The notes: a model not told the origin generated them from the letters alone. Shown: positions 1 to 8,387, counted from the first letter of the stretch. The stretch is DNA of 64,000 bases from Escherichia coli (GCF_003334765.1 NZ_QOWT01000001.1), one strand, 5' to 3'. Numbers and translations: made by a program.

Positions 1-646
1 GTTTGTCTGCGGCGTCTGGGAATGCGCAAATGGAATAACCATTCAGTGGGTTATCGCCGTGGCGAAGCGCCAGAAAAGCCGCCGGGCCGTGGCAAAGGGA
101 GATAACAAAACGGTCATTTTTGATTGCCCACTGTAAAGCGGCAGCTACGTCCTGGCTTTCAGGTAAACCAATAAGTGCGCCATGACCACCAGGAACAAAG
201 ATTGCTGCATATTCGCTATCAGCGTTGAGGCTGGCGACAACATCCGCGAGTTTCTTCGGATTGCGGAACAACGATTTATGCTGCTCAAAGAATGGCATTA
301 CTTTTTCATCTTTGTGCGGCATAGCCCAGTATTCAAACTTGGTCATCAGACCGGAAATGGTCGCCACTTCGAATTCGAAACCTGCAGCATGGAGATGATA
401 CAACGGCAGCAACGTTTCAATCGGATGGTTACCGGTCGAGAACAGTTTTCCGTTATCGGTCGGCAAATAACGTTCGTCCGCGGCGATCACCAGAATTTTA
501 TGTTTACCGCGATAAGGTTTTGGATAGTCCACGCCATCAAGATCAGAGACAGGACTGGTATATTGGCTAAGCGAATATTCTGAAGGAAAGAATGCATTAT
601 CTTCAGCAATATCGACCTGCGGATTTTTACTTGTTTGAACAGTCAT
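1..646 (-). CDS. hchA: Hsp31 glyoxalase/chaperone HchA, N-terminal portion (gene runs off the window start)
   Basis: Minus-strand translation from ATG at 644-646 reads MTVQTSKNPQVDIAEDNAFFPSEY...; absent from ORF track because no stop lies inside the window. Confidence 0.85.
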   Translation of the reverse strand, partial: MTVQTSKNPQVDIAEDNAFFPSEYSLSQYTSPVSDLDGVDYPKPYRGKHKILVIAADERYLPTDNGKLFSTGNHPIETLLPLYHLHAAGFEFEVATISGLMTKFEYWAMPHKDEKVMPFFEQHKSLFRNPKKLADVVASLNADSEYAAIFVPGGHGALIGLPESQDVAAALQWAIKNDRFVISLCHGPAAFLALRHGDNPLNGYSICAFPDAADK

Positions 647-1156
647 AGTGTATTCCTTATTATTGCTTAGTTAGGGTAGTCACTATATTTGCGACTGAGC
701 TGGTCGCTATTTTTAACCAGGCTGGAAAATTGAGTCAATATATCGAAAGCGGTAGTCGGCGGGTGTAAGTATGTAATGATGATGCTGCACTGGTGTTGAA
801 TATTATTCACGCCAAATTTTCCTTATTGAGCAACGTCGTCGCAAGTGGCCTCAATGATTTTAGACCATTATCAGAGGTACGGGGCGGCGGGGAGAGATTT
901 AGTGATGTGGAATATTGTGGTGCTGATGAATATTTATATCCCGGATTGGTGGAGAAAAAGCTTTTTCCATGCACTTTTTTTGCAAAAATTTCTATATGGG
1001 AGGCGTGTTTGTTGCGGATTAATTCATAAAGAAATGTATTTGGAGTGTTGGCTGGAAGAGTAGCTGGTAGAAGATATTGTGCCAGGAGGGGCAGGGTAAG
1101 GTGGTGTATCGATATGCTTTGGCAATTGCGTGTGCCGCAGATGGAGATGAAATGCC

Positions 1157-1196
1157 AATAAAAAAGCCTGAGTTCGATGAGGGACGAACTCAGGCT
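1157..1196 (-). terminator. Rho-independent terminator downstream of yedS
   Basis: Inverted repeat agcctgagttcg / cgaactcaggct with adjacent A-run on plus strand (T-run on minus strand). Confidence 0.5.
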
Positions 1197-1238
1197 AGTG
1201 TTAAGTTTTACAGTAACACGCCGCGGCGCGTCGGCTGA

Positions 1239-2354
1239 TTAGAACTGGTAGACGATACCAACTGCAAACTGGTCATCAGCTGCTGCGCCAGTAATGGCGG
1301 CGTCATCTTTATCCAGCATGTTGAATTTGTATGCAGTATAAACGTTCATGTTCTTATTAAAGTAGTACCAGGTACCAACTTCAATGTAGTTCACACGGTC
1401 AGCGTCAACATATCTATGTCCAGGTACCCCTTTGATATCTTTACCTTTAGAGTACACATAACCTAAGGACGGACGCAGACCAAAGTCGAATTGATACTGA
1501 ACAACCGCTTCAAAGTTCTGGGTTTCATTGATAAGTTGATCACGCATTATTGTATTGCCTTCTCGATCGGCAACACCTGTATCAATAGAACCCGGAGTCA
1601 TATTACGAGTTTCGCCGTACATTACAGCTGCGTAGACATTGTTCGCGTCATACTTTGCAGCCAACGACCACAGTTCAGCATTTGAACCGTTTCCATCGGC
1701 AACTTGATCGTTGGTGCGATCAGATTTGCTATATGCACCAACGATACCAAAACCATTGATGTTATAGTCTACAGACAACGCATAGCCGTCACCATTTTGT
1801 TTCTTAGTGCTACGGTTGCTGTTTTTGCCTTGGTACTGAATCGCAAAATCAAGACCATCAACCAGGCCAAAGAAATCATAGTTACGGTAGGTTGCAACAC
1901 CGTTGGTACGACCATTCATGAAGTTGTCAGCGGAAGCCCAGGAATCGCCACCCCATTCAACTAACATATCGGTATAAGCTGCGGCATCATAAGCAACACC
2001 GTAGTTACGGCCATAGTCAAATGATCCTAACTCGTTATATTTCAAACCGGCGAAGGTTAAACGGGTTTTTTCCTGGTTTTCACCTTCGGGCTTGCTGGCG
2101 TCGAGGTTGTATTCAAACTGACCAAAACCAGTCAGTTCGCTGGTGATTTGGGTTTCACCTTTAACACCGAAACGAGCATAGGAGGTATCTTCGTTTTCGC
2201 TGTTATTATCATCAGTATTTGACCAGATGCGTTCGCCAACCATCTTGCCGTAGAAATCAACTTTATTGCCATCTTTATTATAAATTTCAGCCGCATTTGC
2301 TGCGCCAGCAACTAATAACGCCGGGACCAGCATTGCCAGAACTTTTCTTTTCAT
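1239..2354 (-). CDS. yedS: OmpC-family outer membrane porin YedS, apparently intact
   Basis: ORF track 1239..2384; porin-like signal peptide [21 protein letters not shown] and C-terminal ...VGIVYQF; start placed at internal ATG 2352-2354. Confidence 0.8.
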
Positions 2355-2920
2355 TATGTATTCCCTTGTGATTATAATCTTCATGAATATATCAATAAGT
2401 GCCGTTATCCAAAAAAAAGCACATTTGGATACTATTCTATGAAGTTCATTTTATTTTAAGGATTACATGTAACAAATGTATTTAAAAGATTTCAAAATGT
2501 TTCTAATCTATTTAATATAATTCAGAATTATGAATTCTAAATATAAATATTCATGAAAATTATAAATGTATATCAATATGTTATGAGTTGGGTGGAAACA
2601 TAGGGGGTGTCAATGATTGTTGCGCTAAACGGCTGGTGTGATCACGCGCACATTAATGAAGGCATAAAAAAAAGCCGGCATCATGCCGGCCCAAAAAATA
2701 TAAACAAGACGATAAAAGGCTAATAACGGAGGCATCATGACACAGAATAATAAAAAGGTATAATTGTAATCAGTGCTAATATATTGATTGAATGAATTAA
2801 TAAAGCCGATCTCAAAGATAAATAAAATCGCTCAAAACGATTTTTCCTGTATTCACTGCCGTTGCGCAAAAATTATCTATTTGTTCAAAAAATGAGTGAG
2901 TCTTGACTGGCTCATCCAAT

Positions 2921-3286
2921 GTGGAAAAATGTGACTTTTATCACATAATAGTACTAAGTCTGAATTTTCCGGGTTATCTCAAAATGGAATACGGTTCGAC
3001 AAAGATGGAAGAGAGACTCTCTCGCAGCCCTAGTGGCAAACTGGCTTTGTGGGCTTTCTATACATGGTGTGGCTATTTCGTCTGGGCAATGGCGCGTTAC
3101 ATCTGGGTGATGAGCCGGATCCCCGATGCCCTCGTGTCGGGATTTGAAAGCGATTTAGGCTCTACCGCGGGAAAGTGGTTAGGGGCACTGGTCGGATTTT
3201 TATTTATGGCTCTGGTCGGGGCATTGTTAGGCAGCATTGCCTGGTACACCCGACCTCGTCCCGCACGTAGCAGACGCTATGAATAA
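2921..3286 (+). CDS. yedR: small inner membrane protein YedR
   Basis: ORF track 2903..3286; hydrophobic segments; start uncertain (TTG 2903, GTG 2921 or ATG 2984). Confidence 0.6.
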   Translation: MEKCDFYHIIVLSLNFPGYLKMEYGSTKMEERLSRSPSGKLALWAFYTWCGYFVWAMARYIWVMSRIPDALVSGFESDLGSTAGKWLGALVGFLFMALVGALLGSIAWYTRPRPARSRRYE

Positions 3287-3325
3287 AAACTGCTAAGGTG
3301 GCGACTCTTTGGCAACGGAGCGCGT

Positions 3326-4021
3326 ATGGACTTACAACACTGGCAGGCACAGTTCGAAAACTGGTTGAAAAACCATCATCAGCACCAGGACGCGGCCCAT
3401 GACGTGTGTCATTTTCGCCGCGTCTGGGCTACGGCACAGAAGCTGGCGGCAGATGATGACGTCGATATGCTGGTGATTTTAACAGCCTGTTATTTTCACG
3501 ATATTGTGAGCCTGGCGAAAAATTATCCGCAAAGGCAGCGTTCTTCAATCCTGGCGGCAGAAGAGACGCGTCGCCTGCTCCGTGAAGAGTTCGTGCAATT
3601 TCCGGCGGAGAAAATCGAGGCCGTTTGTCATGCCATTGCCGCTCACAGTTTCAGCGCGCAAATCGCCCCCTTAACCACGGAAGCTAAAATCGTCCAGGAT
3701 GCGGATCGGCTGGAAGCCCTGGGGGCGATTGGCCTGGCGCGCGTGTTTGCCGTTTCAGGGGCATTGGGCGTGGCGCTGTTTGATGGCGAAGATCCGTTCG
3801 CACAGTATCGCCCGCTTGATGATAAACGCTACGCGCTGGATCATTTCCAGACTAAGTTGTTGAAGCTACCGCAAACCATGCAAACCGTAAGAGGCAAGCA
3901 GCTGGCGCAGCACAACGCGCAATTTTTAGTCGAGTTTATGGCGAAGCTCAGTGCCGAACTGGCGGGGGAGAATGAAGGTGTCGATCACAAGGTGATAGAT
4001 GCGTTTTCACCCGCGGGCTGA
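3326..4021 (+). CDS. yedJ: HD-domain phosphohydrolase YedJ
   Basis: 231 aa ORF with HD motif (CYFHDIV...DADRLEALG). Confidence 0.85.
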
Positions 4022-4087
4022 GCGCGTGGCCCTAAATGGCTGTAATTATGTTAACCTGTCGACCATCTCAGATGGCCGGTTAAATCT

Positions 4088-5506
4088 ATGCAGGAAAATA
4101 TATCAGTAACCGATTCATACAGCACCGGGAATGCCGCACAGGCAATGCTGGAGAAACTGCTGCAAATTTATGATGTTAAAACGCTGGTGGCTCAGCTTAA
4201 TGGTGTGGGTGAGAATCACTGGAGCGCGGCAATTTTAAAACGTGCGCTGGCGAATGACTCGGCATGGCACCGTTTAAGTGAGAAAGAGTTCGCCCATCTG
4301 CAAACGTTGTTACCCAAACCACCGGCACATCATCCGCATTATGCGTTTCGCTTTATCGATCTATTTGCCGGAATTGGCGGCATCCGTCGCGGTTTTGAAT
4401 CGATTGGCGGACAGTGCGTGTTTACCAGCGAATGGAACAAACATGCGGTACGCACTTATAAAGCCAATCATTATTGCGACCCGGCGACGCATCATTTTAA
4501 TGAAGATATCCGCGACATCACCCTCAGCCATAAAGAAGGCGTGAGTGATGAGGCGGCGGCGGAACATATTCGTCAACACATTCCTGAACACGATGTTTTA
4601 CTGGCCGGTTTCCCTTGTCAGCCATTTTCGCTGGCTGGCGTATCGAAAAAGAACTCGCTCGGGCGGGCGCACGGTTTTGCCTGCGATACTCAGGGCACGC
4701 TGTTCTTTGATGTGGTGCGCATTATCGACGCGCGTCGTCCGGCGATGTTTGTGCTCGAAAACGTCAAAAACCTGAAAAGCCACGACCAGGGTAAAACGTT
4801 CCGCATCATCATGCAGACGCTGGACGAACTGGGCTATGACGTGGCTGATGCAGAAGATAACGGGCCGGACGATCCGAAAATCATCGATGGTAAACATTTT
4901 CTGCCGCAGCACCGTGAACGCATCGTGCTGGTGGGTTTTCGTCGCGATCTTAACCTGAAAGCCGATTTTACTCTGCGTGATATCAGCGGATGTTTCCCTG
5001 CGCAGCGAGTGACGCTGGCGCAGCTGCTGGACCCGATGGTCGAGGCGAAATATATCCTGACGCCGGTACTGTGGAAGTACCTCTATCGATATGCGAAAAA
5101 ACATCAGGCGCGCGGTAACGGCTTCGGTTATGGAATGGTTTATCCGAACAATCCGCAAAGCGTCACCCGTACGCTGTCTGCGCGTTATTACAAAGATGGC
5201 GCGGAAATTTTAATCGATCGCGGATGGGATATGGCCACGGGTGAAAAAGACTTTGACGATCCGCTGAATCAGCAACATCGTCCACGTCGGTTAACGCCTC
5301 GGGAATGCGCGCGCTTAATGGGTTTTGAAGCGCCGGGAGAAGCGAAATTCCGCATTCCGGTTTCGGACACTCAGGCCTATCGCCAGTTCGGTAACTCGGT
5401 GGTCGTGCCGGTCTTTGCCGCGGTGGCAAAACTGCTTGAGCCAAAAATCAAACAGGCGGTGGCGTTGCGTCAGCAAGAGGCACAACATGGCCGATGTTCA
5501 CGATAA
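4088..5506 (+). CDS. dcm: DNA-cytosine C5 methyltransferase Dcm
   Basis: 472 aa ORF with C5-MTase motifs ([17 protein letters not shown]). Confidence 0.93.
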
Positions 5507-5957
5507 GGCCACACGCAGCAAAAATATGCGCGCGATTGCCACGCGTGATACGGCGATTGAGAAGCGCCTCGCCAGTTTGTTAACCGGGCAGGGACTGGCG
5601 TTTCGCGTTCAGGACGCCAGTCTGCCCGGACGCCCGGATTTTGTCGTTGATGAATATCGCTGCGTGATATTTACCCATGGCTGCTTCTGGCATCATCATC
5701 ACTGCTATCTGTTTAAAGTGCCTGCGACTCGAACCGAGTTCTGGCTGGAGAAGATAGGTAAAAATGTTGAGCGCGATCGCCGCGATATCAGTCGCTTGCA
5801 GGAACTCGGCTGGCGCGTATTGATTGTCTGGGAGTGCGCGTTACGTGGGCGCGAGAAGCTGACGGATGAAGCGCTTAGCGAGCGTCTGGAAGAGTGGATC
5901 TGCGGCGAAGGTGCCAGCGCGCAGATCGACACGCAGGGGATTCATTTACTCGCTTGA
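5487..5957 (+). CDS. vsr: very short patch repair endonuclease Vsr
   Basis: ATG at 5487 inside the 3' end of dcm in another frame; product [22 protein letters not shown]..., 156 aa. Confidence 0.9.
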
Positions 5958-6866
5958 TGCGTCCTGAATAACTGGCGCAACTACGGGTTTTGCCGGAAAG
6001 AGATATTTTCCCAACGTGACCAGCACCACCGCGAAGACAATTACGCCGAGCGCCAGCCATTCAATCTTCGAAAGCGTCTCTCCACCCAGTCCCGTACCCA
6101 GCAAGACCGCGACCACCGGGTTAACGTAGGCGTAGCTGGTGGCGAGAGCCGGACTGACGTTGCGGATTAAATACATATAAGCGTTGATGGCGATAATCGA
6201 ACCAAACAGCGCCAGATAGCCGACCGCAAGGAAGCCTGAAAGGGAAGGGAGCGCCGTCAGTTTTTCACCCGCAATCATCGACGCGATCATTAACACCACG
6301 CCTGCCGCCAGCATCTCAATCGCACCCGCCATCATCCCTACAGGTAAGGTAATGTGCGAGCCATAAACTGAGCCAAACGCCCAGCTAATCGAGCCGATTA
6401 AAATCAGAATCGCGCCCCACGGATTGCCGCTTAAATTTCCACCGCTATTGAGCATGATGATTCCGGCAAGCCCAATGGCAATACCCACCCATTCCAGTTT
6501 GCGCGTTTTAATGCCAAACAGGCGGCTGAAGCACAGGGTAAAGAGGGGCACGGTTGCAACCACTACGGCGGCGATGCCGGAAGGAACATTTTGATGTTCG
6601 GCAACCGTCACCATGCCATTACCGACAGCCAGCAATAACAGGCCAATCAGCGCGGCATTGAGCAGCGGACGTAGCGGGGGGAGCTTGTGTCCGCGCAGTA
6701 GCAAAAATGCCAGCAATAAAATACCGGCTGCCAGGAATCGAACGCCCGCCATCATTAATGGAGGCCAGCTTTCCACGCCAATCCGAATGACAAAATAGGT
6801 TGAGCCCCAAATGATATACAACGCAAACAGCGCGCCAAAAAGCGGTAATAACTGGCGGAAACGCAT
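5946..6866 (-). CDS. yedA: EamA/DMT-family inner membrane transporter YedA
   Basis: 306 aa polytopic membrane ORF. Confidence 0.85.
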   Translation of the reverse strand: MRFRQLLPLFGALFALYIIWGSTYFVIRIGVESWPPLMMAGVRFLAAGILLLAFLLLRGHKLPPLRPLLNAALIGLLLLAVGNGMVTVAEHQNVPSGIAAVVVATVPLFTLCFSRLFGIKTRKLEWVGIAIGLAGIIMLNSGGNLSGNPWGAILILIGSISWAFGSVYGSHITLPVGMMAGAIEMLAAGVVLMIASMIAGEKLTALPSLSGFLAVGYLALFGSIIAINAYMYLIRNVSPALATSYAYVNPVVAVLLGTGLGGETLSKIEWLALGVIVFAVVLVTLGKYLFPAKPVVAPVIQDASSE

Positions 6867-7038
6867 AATCCCTCACGGTGGAAATAAAAAGGTGGTTCAT
6901 AGTAAACGTGAAAATCATTCTGCTGGCGAGAGATATAATTGCACTTGATTGTTAAAAAAATGTTGACCTGTGAAGCAAGTATCAGAGCTGCCGTTTTTGC
7001 TTCATACTTACACCCTTCAACAATAAAAATGAGAGGGA

Positions 7039-7956
7039 ATGCTTTTGGCCGGGAGTAGTTTACTGACGTTGCTCGATGATATCGCCACACTGCTGGACGA
7101 TATCTCCGTGATGGGCAAACTGGCGGCGAAGAAAACCGCCGGTGTATTAGGGGATGACTTATCGCTCAATGCGCAACAAGTTTCAGGTGTGCGGGCCAAC
7201 CGGGAACTTCCCGTGGTCTGGGGCGTGGCGAAAGGATCGCTGATCAATAAAGTGATTCTGGTGCCACTGGCGCTGATTATCAGTGCGTTTATCCCGTGGG
7301 CGATTACGCCATTGTTGATGATCGGTGGCGCGTTTCTCTGCTTTGAAGGGGTAGAGAAAGTGCTGCATATGCTGGAGGCGCGTAAACATAAAGAAGATCC
7401 GGCGCAGAGTCAGCAGCGTCTGGAGAAGCTGGCGGCGCAGGATCCGCTGAAGTTTGAAAAGGACAAAATAAAAGGGGCGATTCGTACCGATTTTATATTG
7501 TCTGCGGAAATCGTCGCCATCACGCTGGGGATTGTGGCCGAAGCGCCGTTGCTTAATCAGGTGCTGGTGCTTTCAGGCATCGCGCTGGTAGTGACCGTGG
7601 GCGTCTACGGTCTGGTAGGGGTTATCGTTAAGATTGATGACCTGGGGTATTGGCTGGCGGAAAAATCCAGCGCGCTGATGCAGGCATTAGGTAAAGGATT
7701 ATTGATTATCGCGCCCTGGCTGATGAAAGCGTTTTCGATTGTCGGCACGCTGGCGATGTTCCTCGTCGGCGGCGGGATTGTGGTACATGGTATTGCGCCG
7801 CTGCATCACGCCATTGAACATTTCGCCGGGCAGCAAAGTGCAGTGGTGGCGATGATATTACCGACTGTTTTAAATCTGATTCTTGGATTTATCATCGGCG
7901 GCATCGTGGTGCTGGGAGTGAAAGCCGTAGCAAAAATGCGCGGTCAGGCACATTAA
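7039..7956 (+). CDS. yedI: inner membrane protein YedI (DUF808)
   Basis: 305 aa membrane ORF. Confidence 0.85.
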
Positions 7957-8034
7957 TACTCGCACAAGCTATTATGCAAAATTCGCCATCTTCAACTAAG
8001 GTGAACAAGTTTCACTCGAAAAAAGGAGGCGAGT

Positions 8035-8217
8035 ATGAGCTTTATGGTTAGTGAGGAAGTTACGGTTAAAGAGGGCGGCCCGCGGATGATTGTCACTGGA
8101 TACTCCAGCGGTATGGTTGAGTGTCGTTGGTATGACGGTTACGGGGTCAAGCGGGAAGCTTTTCATGAAACCGAGCTTGTTCCAGGGGAGGGGAGTCGTT
8201 CTGCGGAAGAAGTTTGA
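8035..8217 (+). CDS. yodC: small protein YodC
   Basis: 60 aa ORF MSFMVSEEVTVKEGGPRMIVTGYSSG... Confidence 0.8.
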   Translation: MSFMVSEEVTVKEGGPRMIVTGYSSGMVECRWYDGYGVKREAFHETELVPGEGSRSAEEV

Positions 8218-8387
8218 AAGGGTATCATTAAGACCAGGCCGGATCACATCCGGCCTGGTGTGCCAATGCCTGCAATGAATGATAGTCGCGTCTTATCATG
8301 CCACCATTATAAAATTATCGCTGTTTTGCGGTACGCTATCGCCAGGTTATGCCAGAATCATAAAAAAGCAGGTGGGGAGTCGTCAGG

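Follow-up and report, generated by a model that had tools for sequence, protein, structure and literature searches.

The window, a 64,000-nucleotide stretch of Escherichia coli DNA (GCF_003334765.1, NZ_QOWT01000001.1), carries the gene order yedA-vsr-dcm-yedJ-drpB-rseX-porin-hchA, the same as in K-12 MG1655. On the minus strand, the ORF listing returned a single reading frame of 381 residues at 1239..2384, within which an in-frame ATG at 2354 gives a product of 371 residues ending in ...VGIVYQF before a TAA stop, with no internal stops or frameshifts. We took ATG 2354 as the sensible start, since it is preceded by a Shine-Dalgarno sequence, AAGGGAA (2361..2367, minus strand), that was read from the sequence and was invariant in 13 of 14 orthologous loci, and since the alternative ATG at 2384 was not conserved among the orthologous loci aligned. 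The porin CDS at the yedS locus (1239..2354, minus strand) was delimited by the ORF list, a RefSeq match, Pfam PF00267, and full-length alignment to OmpK35, OmpF, and OmpC structures. It begins with a signal peptide segment of 21 codons (2292..2354, minus strand) whose cleavage site, ANA/AE, was placed by alignment with the signal peptides of OmpC and OmpF, and a terminator scan located an intrinsic terminator with a 12-bp stem and T-run 3' of the gene (1165..1196, minus strand). A prior inspection of this DNA, hereafter the sequence-only reading, had proposed that the yedS frame is intact at 1239-2354, and the uninterrupted, RefSeq-identical 371-codon CDS bears this out; alignment uncovered no frameshift or stop that it had missed.

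RefSeq holds exactly the same 1116-nt CDS in NZ_CP031321 (gene 100% identical), where it is annotated simply as 'porin' (WP_000824355.1), and the window protein is identical to a RefSeq protein whose cluster comprises 1321 member sequences. The porin gene is also 100% identical to that of strain ST2350, yet the surrounding 8.4 kb (window 1-8383) differs by 1.3%, which suggests that the porin allele is common to several backgrounds. In the same region, the annotation of strain ST2350 marks frameshifts in dcm and msrP, and the window dcm is intact (4088..5506). A 2136-nt contig labeled 'MAG: Collinsella sp.' (JAIJJM010000575.1) encodes the same E. coli porin (100% amino acid identity) followed by the start of hchA; the Collinsella MAG has almost certainly picked up this contig as a contaminant from E. 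coli.

In agreement with its initial description as a classical OmpC/OmpF-family porin with a signal peptide and a C-terminal aromatic residue, the database protein identical to the window porin matched Pfam PF00267 (Porin_1), its N-terminus aligned with the OmpC and OmpF signal peptides, and its C-terminal ...VYQF, judged by alignment, supplied the aromatic Phe. Scored over residues 1-371, the NCBIfam models for OmpF (450 bits), OmpC (417 bits), and PhoE (414 bits) all fell under their cut-offs, with the top-scoring model, the OmpF equivalog NF007446, reaching 449.9 bits where 583 are required. Among 48 solved porins searched with phmmer, the best match was OmpK35 (9hn1; E = 9e-145, end-to-end alignment), and the closest solved structures were Klebsiella OmpK35 and Enterobacter aerogenes Omp35. 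An AlphaFold2 model of the window porin (pLDDT 74.7, pTM 0.74), superposed on OmpK35, presented a 16-stranded beta-barrel with an inward L3, and Foldseek aligned the model to OmpK35 5o77 with TM scores of 0.84 (query-normalised) and 0.92 (target-normalised) and an rmsd of 2.8. All seven constriction residues equivalent to OmpF K16, R42, R82, R132, D113, E117, and D121 were conserved. In a motif scan of 43 porins, the L3 constriction motif of the window porin (1944..1970, minus strand) was DMLVEWGGD, as in OmpK35, whereas OmpF, OmpC, PhoE, OmpN, and K-12 YedS carried DMLPEFGGD; relative to OmpF, the changes P116V and F118W produce the VEWGGD form. Judged from sequence comparison and the structural model, the product is apparently a complete and functional general-diffusion porin. 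It would be exported by Sec through the 21-residue signal peptide and then inserted by BAM through its C-terminal Phe, and the resulting 16-stranded barrel, with its pore narrowed by L3, would by homology be trimeric.

E. coli OmpF has the same fold and constriction residues as the window porin at 60% identity, but ompF lies at asnS-ompF-aspC, whereas the window porin lies between drpB and hchA, and the synteny expected of OmpF was absent. The OmpK35 and Omp35 porins (PDB 5o77, 9hn1, 5o78), which are OmpF-type large-channel proteins, share with the window porin the VEWGGD L3 and the constriction charges, and they form the sister clade of the window's clade, the joint clade being recovered in 200/200 bootstraps. 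They differ from it in being 63-66% identical, in the placement of OmpK35 at the asnS-aspC (ompF) locus, and in having a shorter L6 than the window porin. Being structurally closest to Klebsiella OmpK35, the window lineage is described here as OmpF-like.

Consistent with the statement, made when the frame was first noticed, that yedS is disrupted in K-12, the porin position in NC_000913.3 is occupied by yedS (b4496), annotated as a pseudogene. Compared with an intact K-12-type allele in strain PD4, which encodes 397 residues and has 97.5% nucleotide identity to K-12, the K-12 gene has an amber stop (C484T, CAG->TAG, Q162*) and lacks one nucleotide at nt 663. K-12-type alleles were intact in PD4, SLDY13, DEF10, and 19KM1863 and frameshifted in O157:H7. 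RefSeq/PGAP labels the K-12-type yedS alleles 'ompC: porin OmpC', leaving two genes named ompC per genome, and the remaining allele classes are named merely 'porin'.

One account of the window gene would be that it is the undamaged version of K-12 yedS, from which the K-12 copy differs merely by its inactivating mutations. The two genes do share the slot between rseX/drpB and hchA, the promoter region, the 5'UTR, the signal peptide, the last codons, and the downstream DNA. However, in pairwise alignment, identity of the 5'UTR and signal peptide gives way to approximately 70% nucleotide identity with several indels before the last codons and downstream sequence become identical again. Measured per 100-nt window, identity to K-12 was 97-100% from yedJ through the end of the signal peptide, 39-77% in the part encoding the mature protein (about 2285..1256), and 91-100% downstream. 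Identity between the mature proteins reaches only 60%, with many indels; between-class dS is 1.24, which is saturated, and the two proteins fall in separate clades. The window porin was no nearer to repaired K-12 YedS (60%) than to OmpF (60%), OmpC (57%), PhoE (58%), or OmpN (58%), and was 77% identical to porins of Citrobacter and Enterobacter; K-12 YedS, on the other hand, was nearest to OmpN (72%), then OmpC (68%). The predicted products also differ in their L3 (PEFGGD in K-12-type YedS, VEWGGD in the window porin) and length (~397 versus 371 residues), and K-12 YedS clusters with OmpC/OmpN, whereas the window porin clusters with a cross-genus clade of yedS-locus porins. A real intact counterpart of the K-12 gene exists, moreover, in PD4. 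That the window gene is an intact K-12 counterpart, as the sequence-only reading implied, was thus already refuted by these alignments, and we consider it extremely improbable. On sequence grounds, the window gene occupies the same locus as K-12 yedS but represents a different porin lineage and is not a repaired K-12 gene.

The same contrast between conserved ends and a divergent body was evident against other E. coli alleles. Pairwise alignment, sliding identity, and dS delimited an allele-class-specific body, corresponding to the mature protein, at 1256..2285 (minus strand), in which identity per 100 nt to the K-12, ATCC 25922, and O39 types was about 34-79%. The flanks were mostly 97-100% identical to those of K-12, JNE131328, and O39 and 89-100% identical to those of ATCC 25922. 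The five E. coli allele types compared did not differ at all in the first 66 nt of the CDS, and JNE131328, which carries a sister class of the window allele, was 99-100% identical over the first ~250 nt of the CDS, diverging mainly beyond. The long surface loop L6 (residues 254-277; 1524..1595, minus strand), identified by alignment, served as an allele-specific marker segment and was 14 residues longer in the window porin than in the sister class. We infer that the variable parts map to external loops, L6 above all, a pattern consistent with phage or immune selection. Between-class dN/dS was 0.12-0.24, pointing to purifying selection on the barrel.

To count these alleles, we scrutinized 5426 complete E. 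coli genomes. Bands of whole-gene megablast identity were rejected as a census, as the conserved 5' end of 93-135 nt gives short, high-identity matches in every class; searched in this way against K-12, the window gene found ompC as its best match. Class-specific internal segments were used instead, the K-12 type being counted by its whole gene at ≥80% coverage, and this assigned ~82% of the genomes and left ~18% untyped. The window class, queried with window positions 1480-1730 (251 nt), was found in 890/5426 genomes (16%), including ST131 EC958, with 95-100% identity in all but one. Class-specific segments placed the sister class, whose protein is 90% identical to that of the window, in 743/5426 and the ATCC 25922/O39 class (68% amino acid identity) in 1161/5426, and the K-12 type was present in 1662/5426. 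All four allele classes occupy the same locus, and each of the three non-window classes has representatives annotated as intact, intactness having been read in a handful of genomes per class. Hence, an intact yedS is not special to this strain, contrary to what its first description implied; the window allele is already catalogued and common, and its intactness here is routine strain variation.

Beyond E. coli, database homologs 73-78% identical to the window porin were found in Citrobacter, Enterobacter, Atlantibacter, Leclercia, and the Klebsiella oxytoca group. Among non-Escherichia porins that were 65-75% identical and had readable flanks, 20/20 adjoined yedJ, mostly together with dcm and vsr (two further high-identity loci had unreadable flanks and were left out of the 20). 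In contrast, weaker matches (51-65%) with readable flanks adjoined aspC in 58/58 cases and asnS as well in 57/58, which is the ompF/OmpK35 locus. The yedS-locus porins of Citrobacter, Enterobacter, Kosakonia, the K. oxytoca group, Raoultella, and Leclercia (65-78% identity) carry the L3 motif of the window porin, and they share with the window the yedA-vsr-dcm-yedJ upstream synteny, a conserved upstream block, and the Shine-Dalgarno sequence; in databases they are named just 'porin' or 'OmpF'. Downstream, hchA was not detected in the approximately 5 kb covered next to these porins of other genera, and the downstream boundary of the yedS locus is not conserved between genera. Several of the other genera have a tRNA gene pair within 1-5 kb 3' of the porin, some with integrase or SOS-type genes, rather than hchA-hprSR.

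A simple neighbor-joining tree of mature-protein columns (200 bootstraps) grouped the yedS-locus porins, including that of the window and excluding the K-12 type, in 197/200 bootstraps, and placed K-12 YedS together with OmpC and OmpN in 163/200 (82%). Based on the shared yedJ/dcm/vsr synteny and this clade, the sequences identify the window allele as belonging to a lineage orthologous to the yedS-locus porin found across Enterobacteriaceae, with the K-12 type being the odd one out. The best 120 homologs of the K-12-type protein were all from Escherichia or Shigella. Within the genus, the protein of E. fergusonii is window-like (85%) and that of E. albertii is of the K-12 type (87% to PD4), which suggests that the yedS polymorphism is trans-specific or has been exchanged between species.

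These relatives bear on whether the window allele was recently imported, for example from Citrobacter or Enterobacter, and is not a long-standing Escherichia class. Its nearest relatives outside Escherichia are same-locus porins of Atlantibacter, Citrobacter, and Enterobacter (75-78%), the boundaries of recombination are sharp, and the GC content of the gene (43.9%) is lower than that of the window (49.5%). Against this, no non-Escherichia sequence exceeded 78%, compared with 85% for E. fergusonii and 90% for the E. coli sister class, and the frequency of the allele among complete genomes, at near-uniform 95-100% identity, likewise speaks for long residence; low GC, judging from their similar composition, would be common to all enterobacterial porin genes compared. 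As Escherichia relatives are closer than those of any other genus, recent import was rejected as the main explanation and is, in our view, very unlikely.

Upstream of the porin, between it and drpB, lies rseX, a gene for an Hfq-binding sRNA (2667..2756, minus strand) with its own terminator at 2692..2672; its match to Rfam RF01401 scored 99 bits, well over the gathering score of 50, and the gene is annotated in the same place in K-12. As rseX occupies this interval, sequence available for control of the porin itself is limited to about 2355-2666. The sequence-only reading had pointed to a long AT-rich regulatory region at 2385-2900, and the AT-richness stands (28% GC in 2355-2666 versus 49.5% for the window), but part of the region is the rseX gene. 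At the Rfam gathering score, rseX was confined to Escherichia loci; scans of their orthologs in nine other genera gave no match (Citrobacter, Klebsiella, Enterobacter, Atlantibacter, Kosakonia, Phytobacter, Leclercia, Raoultella, and Silvania).

Phylogenetic footprinting of 15 aligned upstream loci (the window, E. coli ATCC 25922, and 13 loci of nine other genera) revealed a conserved block, GAAACATTTTGAAATCTTTT-AAATACATTTGTTACATGTA (2464..2503, minus strand), with four OmpR-like half-sites in ~10-bp phase, including TGTTACAT. Read from 2503 to 2464, the block runs GAAACATTTTGAAAT...TTACAT and resembles the ompC box C1, TTTACATTTTGAAACATCTA, the box having been checked in K-12. It also holds one match (2467-2475) to TGTWACAW, the motif of Salmonella OmpR ChIP-seq targets, ompS1 among them (PMC3586657), although TGTWACAW was not enriched across the window (9 matches versus 7.6 expected). 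The top match of an OmpR position weight matrix (six K-12 ompC/ompF sites, their sequences confirmed at those loci) fell on the same block, but 37% of dinucleotide shuffles scored equally. The search for OmpR-type sites that had been recommended for this region thus yielded a cross-genus block bearing an OmpR-type motif whose matrix score was by itself not significant, and it is the cross-genus conservation that supports the sites. OmpR control of the window porin is thus plausible as a prediction. A second conserved block, AATGAACTTCATAGAATAGTAT (2429..2450, minus strand), contains the candidate -10 hexamers TAGAAT/TAGTAT and, by its conservation, may mark the promoter; a promoter consensus scan favored another weak site, with a -35 at 2475 and a -10 ending at 2448.

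A pattern search recovered one CRP-like palindrome, TGTGATCACGCGCACA, just downstream of rseX (2637..2652, plus strand; 1 match versus 0.2 expected), and a 2026 preprint (PMC12871828) lists the corresponding site in K-12, position 2033766, among CRP footprints obtained in vitro and assigns it to yedS. A second CRP-like palindrome, TGTGATAAAAGTCACA, lies at the start of drpB (about 2930-2950), and the homologous K-12 position is likewise listed as an in vitro CRP footprint in that preprint. Pairing with small RNAs was also considered. Nucleotides 1-33 of MicF gave -7.7 kcal/mol (z = +0.9) with the translation-initiation region of the porin, so that no direct pairing was predicted, and the ompF positive control gave -27.1 kcal/mol (z = -4.95); MicF control of the window porin was rejected, the pairing energy being far short of that control. 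Action of RseX on the adjacent porin mRNA was rejected as well, its predicted pairing being no better than that of shuffles. Folding of whole sRNAs against the targets was uninformative.

The yedS locus may be the equivalent of Salmonella ompS1, as suggested by one table label, an entry reading "yedS (ompS1), pseudogene?" among sigma-E-repressed genes (PMC2731931). Salmonella OmpS1 is a quiescent porin controlled by OmpR, LeuO, and H-NS, and by analogy the window porin may resemble it in regulation, as a low-level or conditional 'quiescent' porin. Transcription from the AT-rich promoter would likely be silenced by H-NS and dependent on OmpR. The H-NS part is extrapolated from K-12, where mutation of hns, or of hns and stpA together, derepresses rseX and the sequence around it (PMC8313858), and the AT-rich upstream region fits such control.

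An intact gene of this kind could also be silent, a cryptic gene that is drifting toward a pseudogene and contributes nothing to permeability. Decay at the locus is recurrent, comprising the K-12 stop and frameshift, the O157:H7 frameshift, and some matches that are IS1-disrupted or partial; the neighboring rseX becomes detectable only upon deletion of hns (PMC8313858), and recombinant YedS was recognized by only 1/141 human sera (PMC11242715). Such drift is at odds with the between-class dN/dS, which indicates purifying selection on the barrel, and with the conservation of every pore residue and, across genera, of the promoter block. Furthermore, as cited in PMC4048246, Warner et al. 2013 (AAC 57:1935) reported that in carbapenem-resistant clinical E. 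coli a yedS porin was active and influenced susceptibility to carbapenems. We consider a silent gene without a permeability role unlikely, though less so than either a repaired K-12 gene or a recent import. Taken together, it is very probable that the locus encodes a functional porin that exists in at least four divergent classes, and belongs in the window to a cross-genus lineage; the classes are probably exchanged by recombination, and expression may be low or conditional.

The identity of the promoter region, 5'UTR, and signal peptide across classes suggests that the classes are exchanged by recombination and probably share their regulation as well. Allele classes would probably be swapped by homologous recombination anchored in these conserved ends, and selection by phages and immunity would diversify the surface loops. 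A stronger formulation is that yedS is a cassette-like, multi-allelic porin locus with at least four persisting classes at paralog-deep divergence (dS about 1.2, 60-68% amino acid identity), in which the K-12 class is an OmpC/OmpN-like replacement of an ancestral OmpK35-like gene; to us, the chances for and against this formulation appear evenly balanced. A limited literature search found no paper describing a multi-class allele structure of yedS. Were the multi-allelic formulation true, 'yedS' in the literature would denote non-equivalent porins, and permeability and phage-receptor phenotypes would depend on class.

In terms of significance, the multi-class allele structure is only a modestly interesting by-product of the analysis. 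For annotators and researchers of outer-membrane permeability, the distinction between allele classes is nevertheless useful: the name 'yedS' covers at least four non-equivalent porins, the K-12 pseudogene is no proxy for the gene here or in ST131, and the allele class should be checked before a "YedS" result is carried between strains. In clinical lineages losing OmpF/OmpC, the OmpK35-like class, provided that it is expressed, could leave beta-lactams a remaining way in or act as a phage receptor. The yedR-yedS intergenic region has been reported as a host-informative marker (PMC11267920). Finally, at the ompF locus, K-12 OmpF (PEFGGD) clusters with PhoE/OmpC/OmpN, apart from the VEWGGD porins found at asnS-aspC in Klebsiella, Enterobacter, Kluyvera, Buttiauxella, and others, and this locus may have a history of allele replacement like that of yedS.
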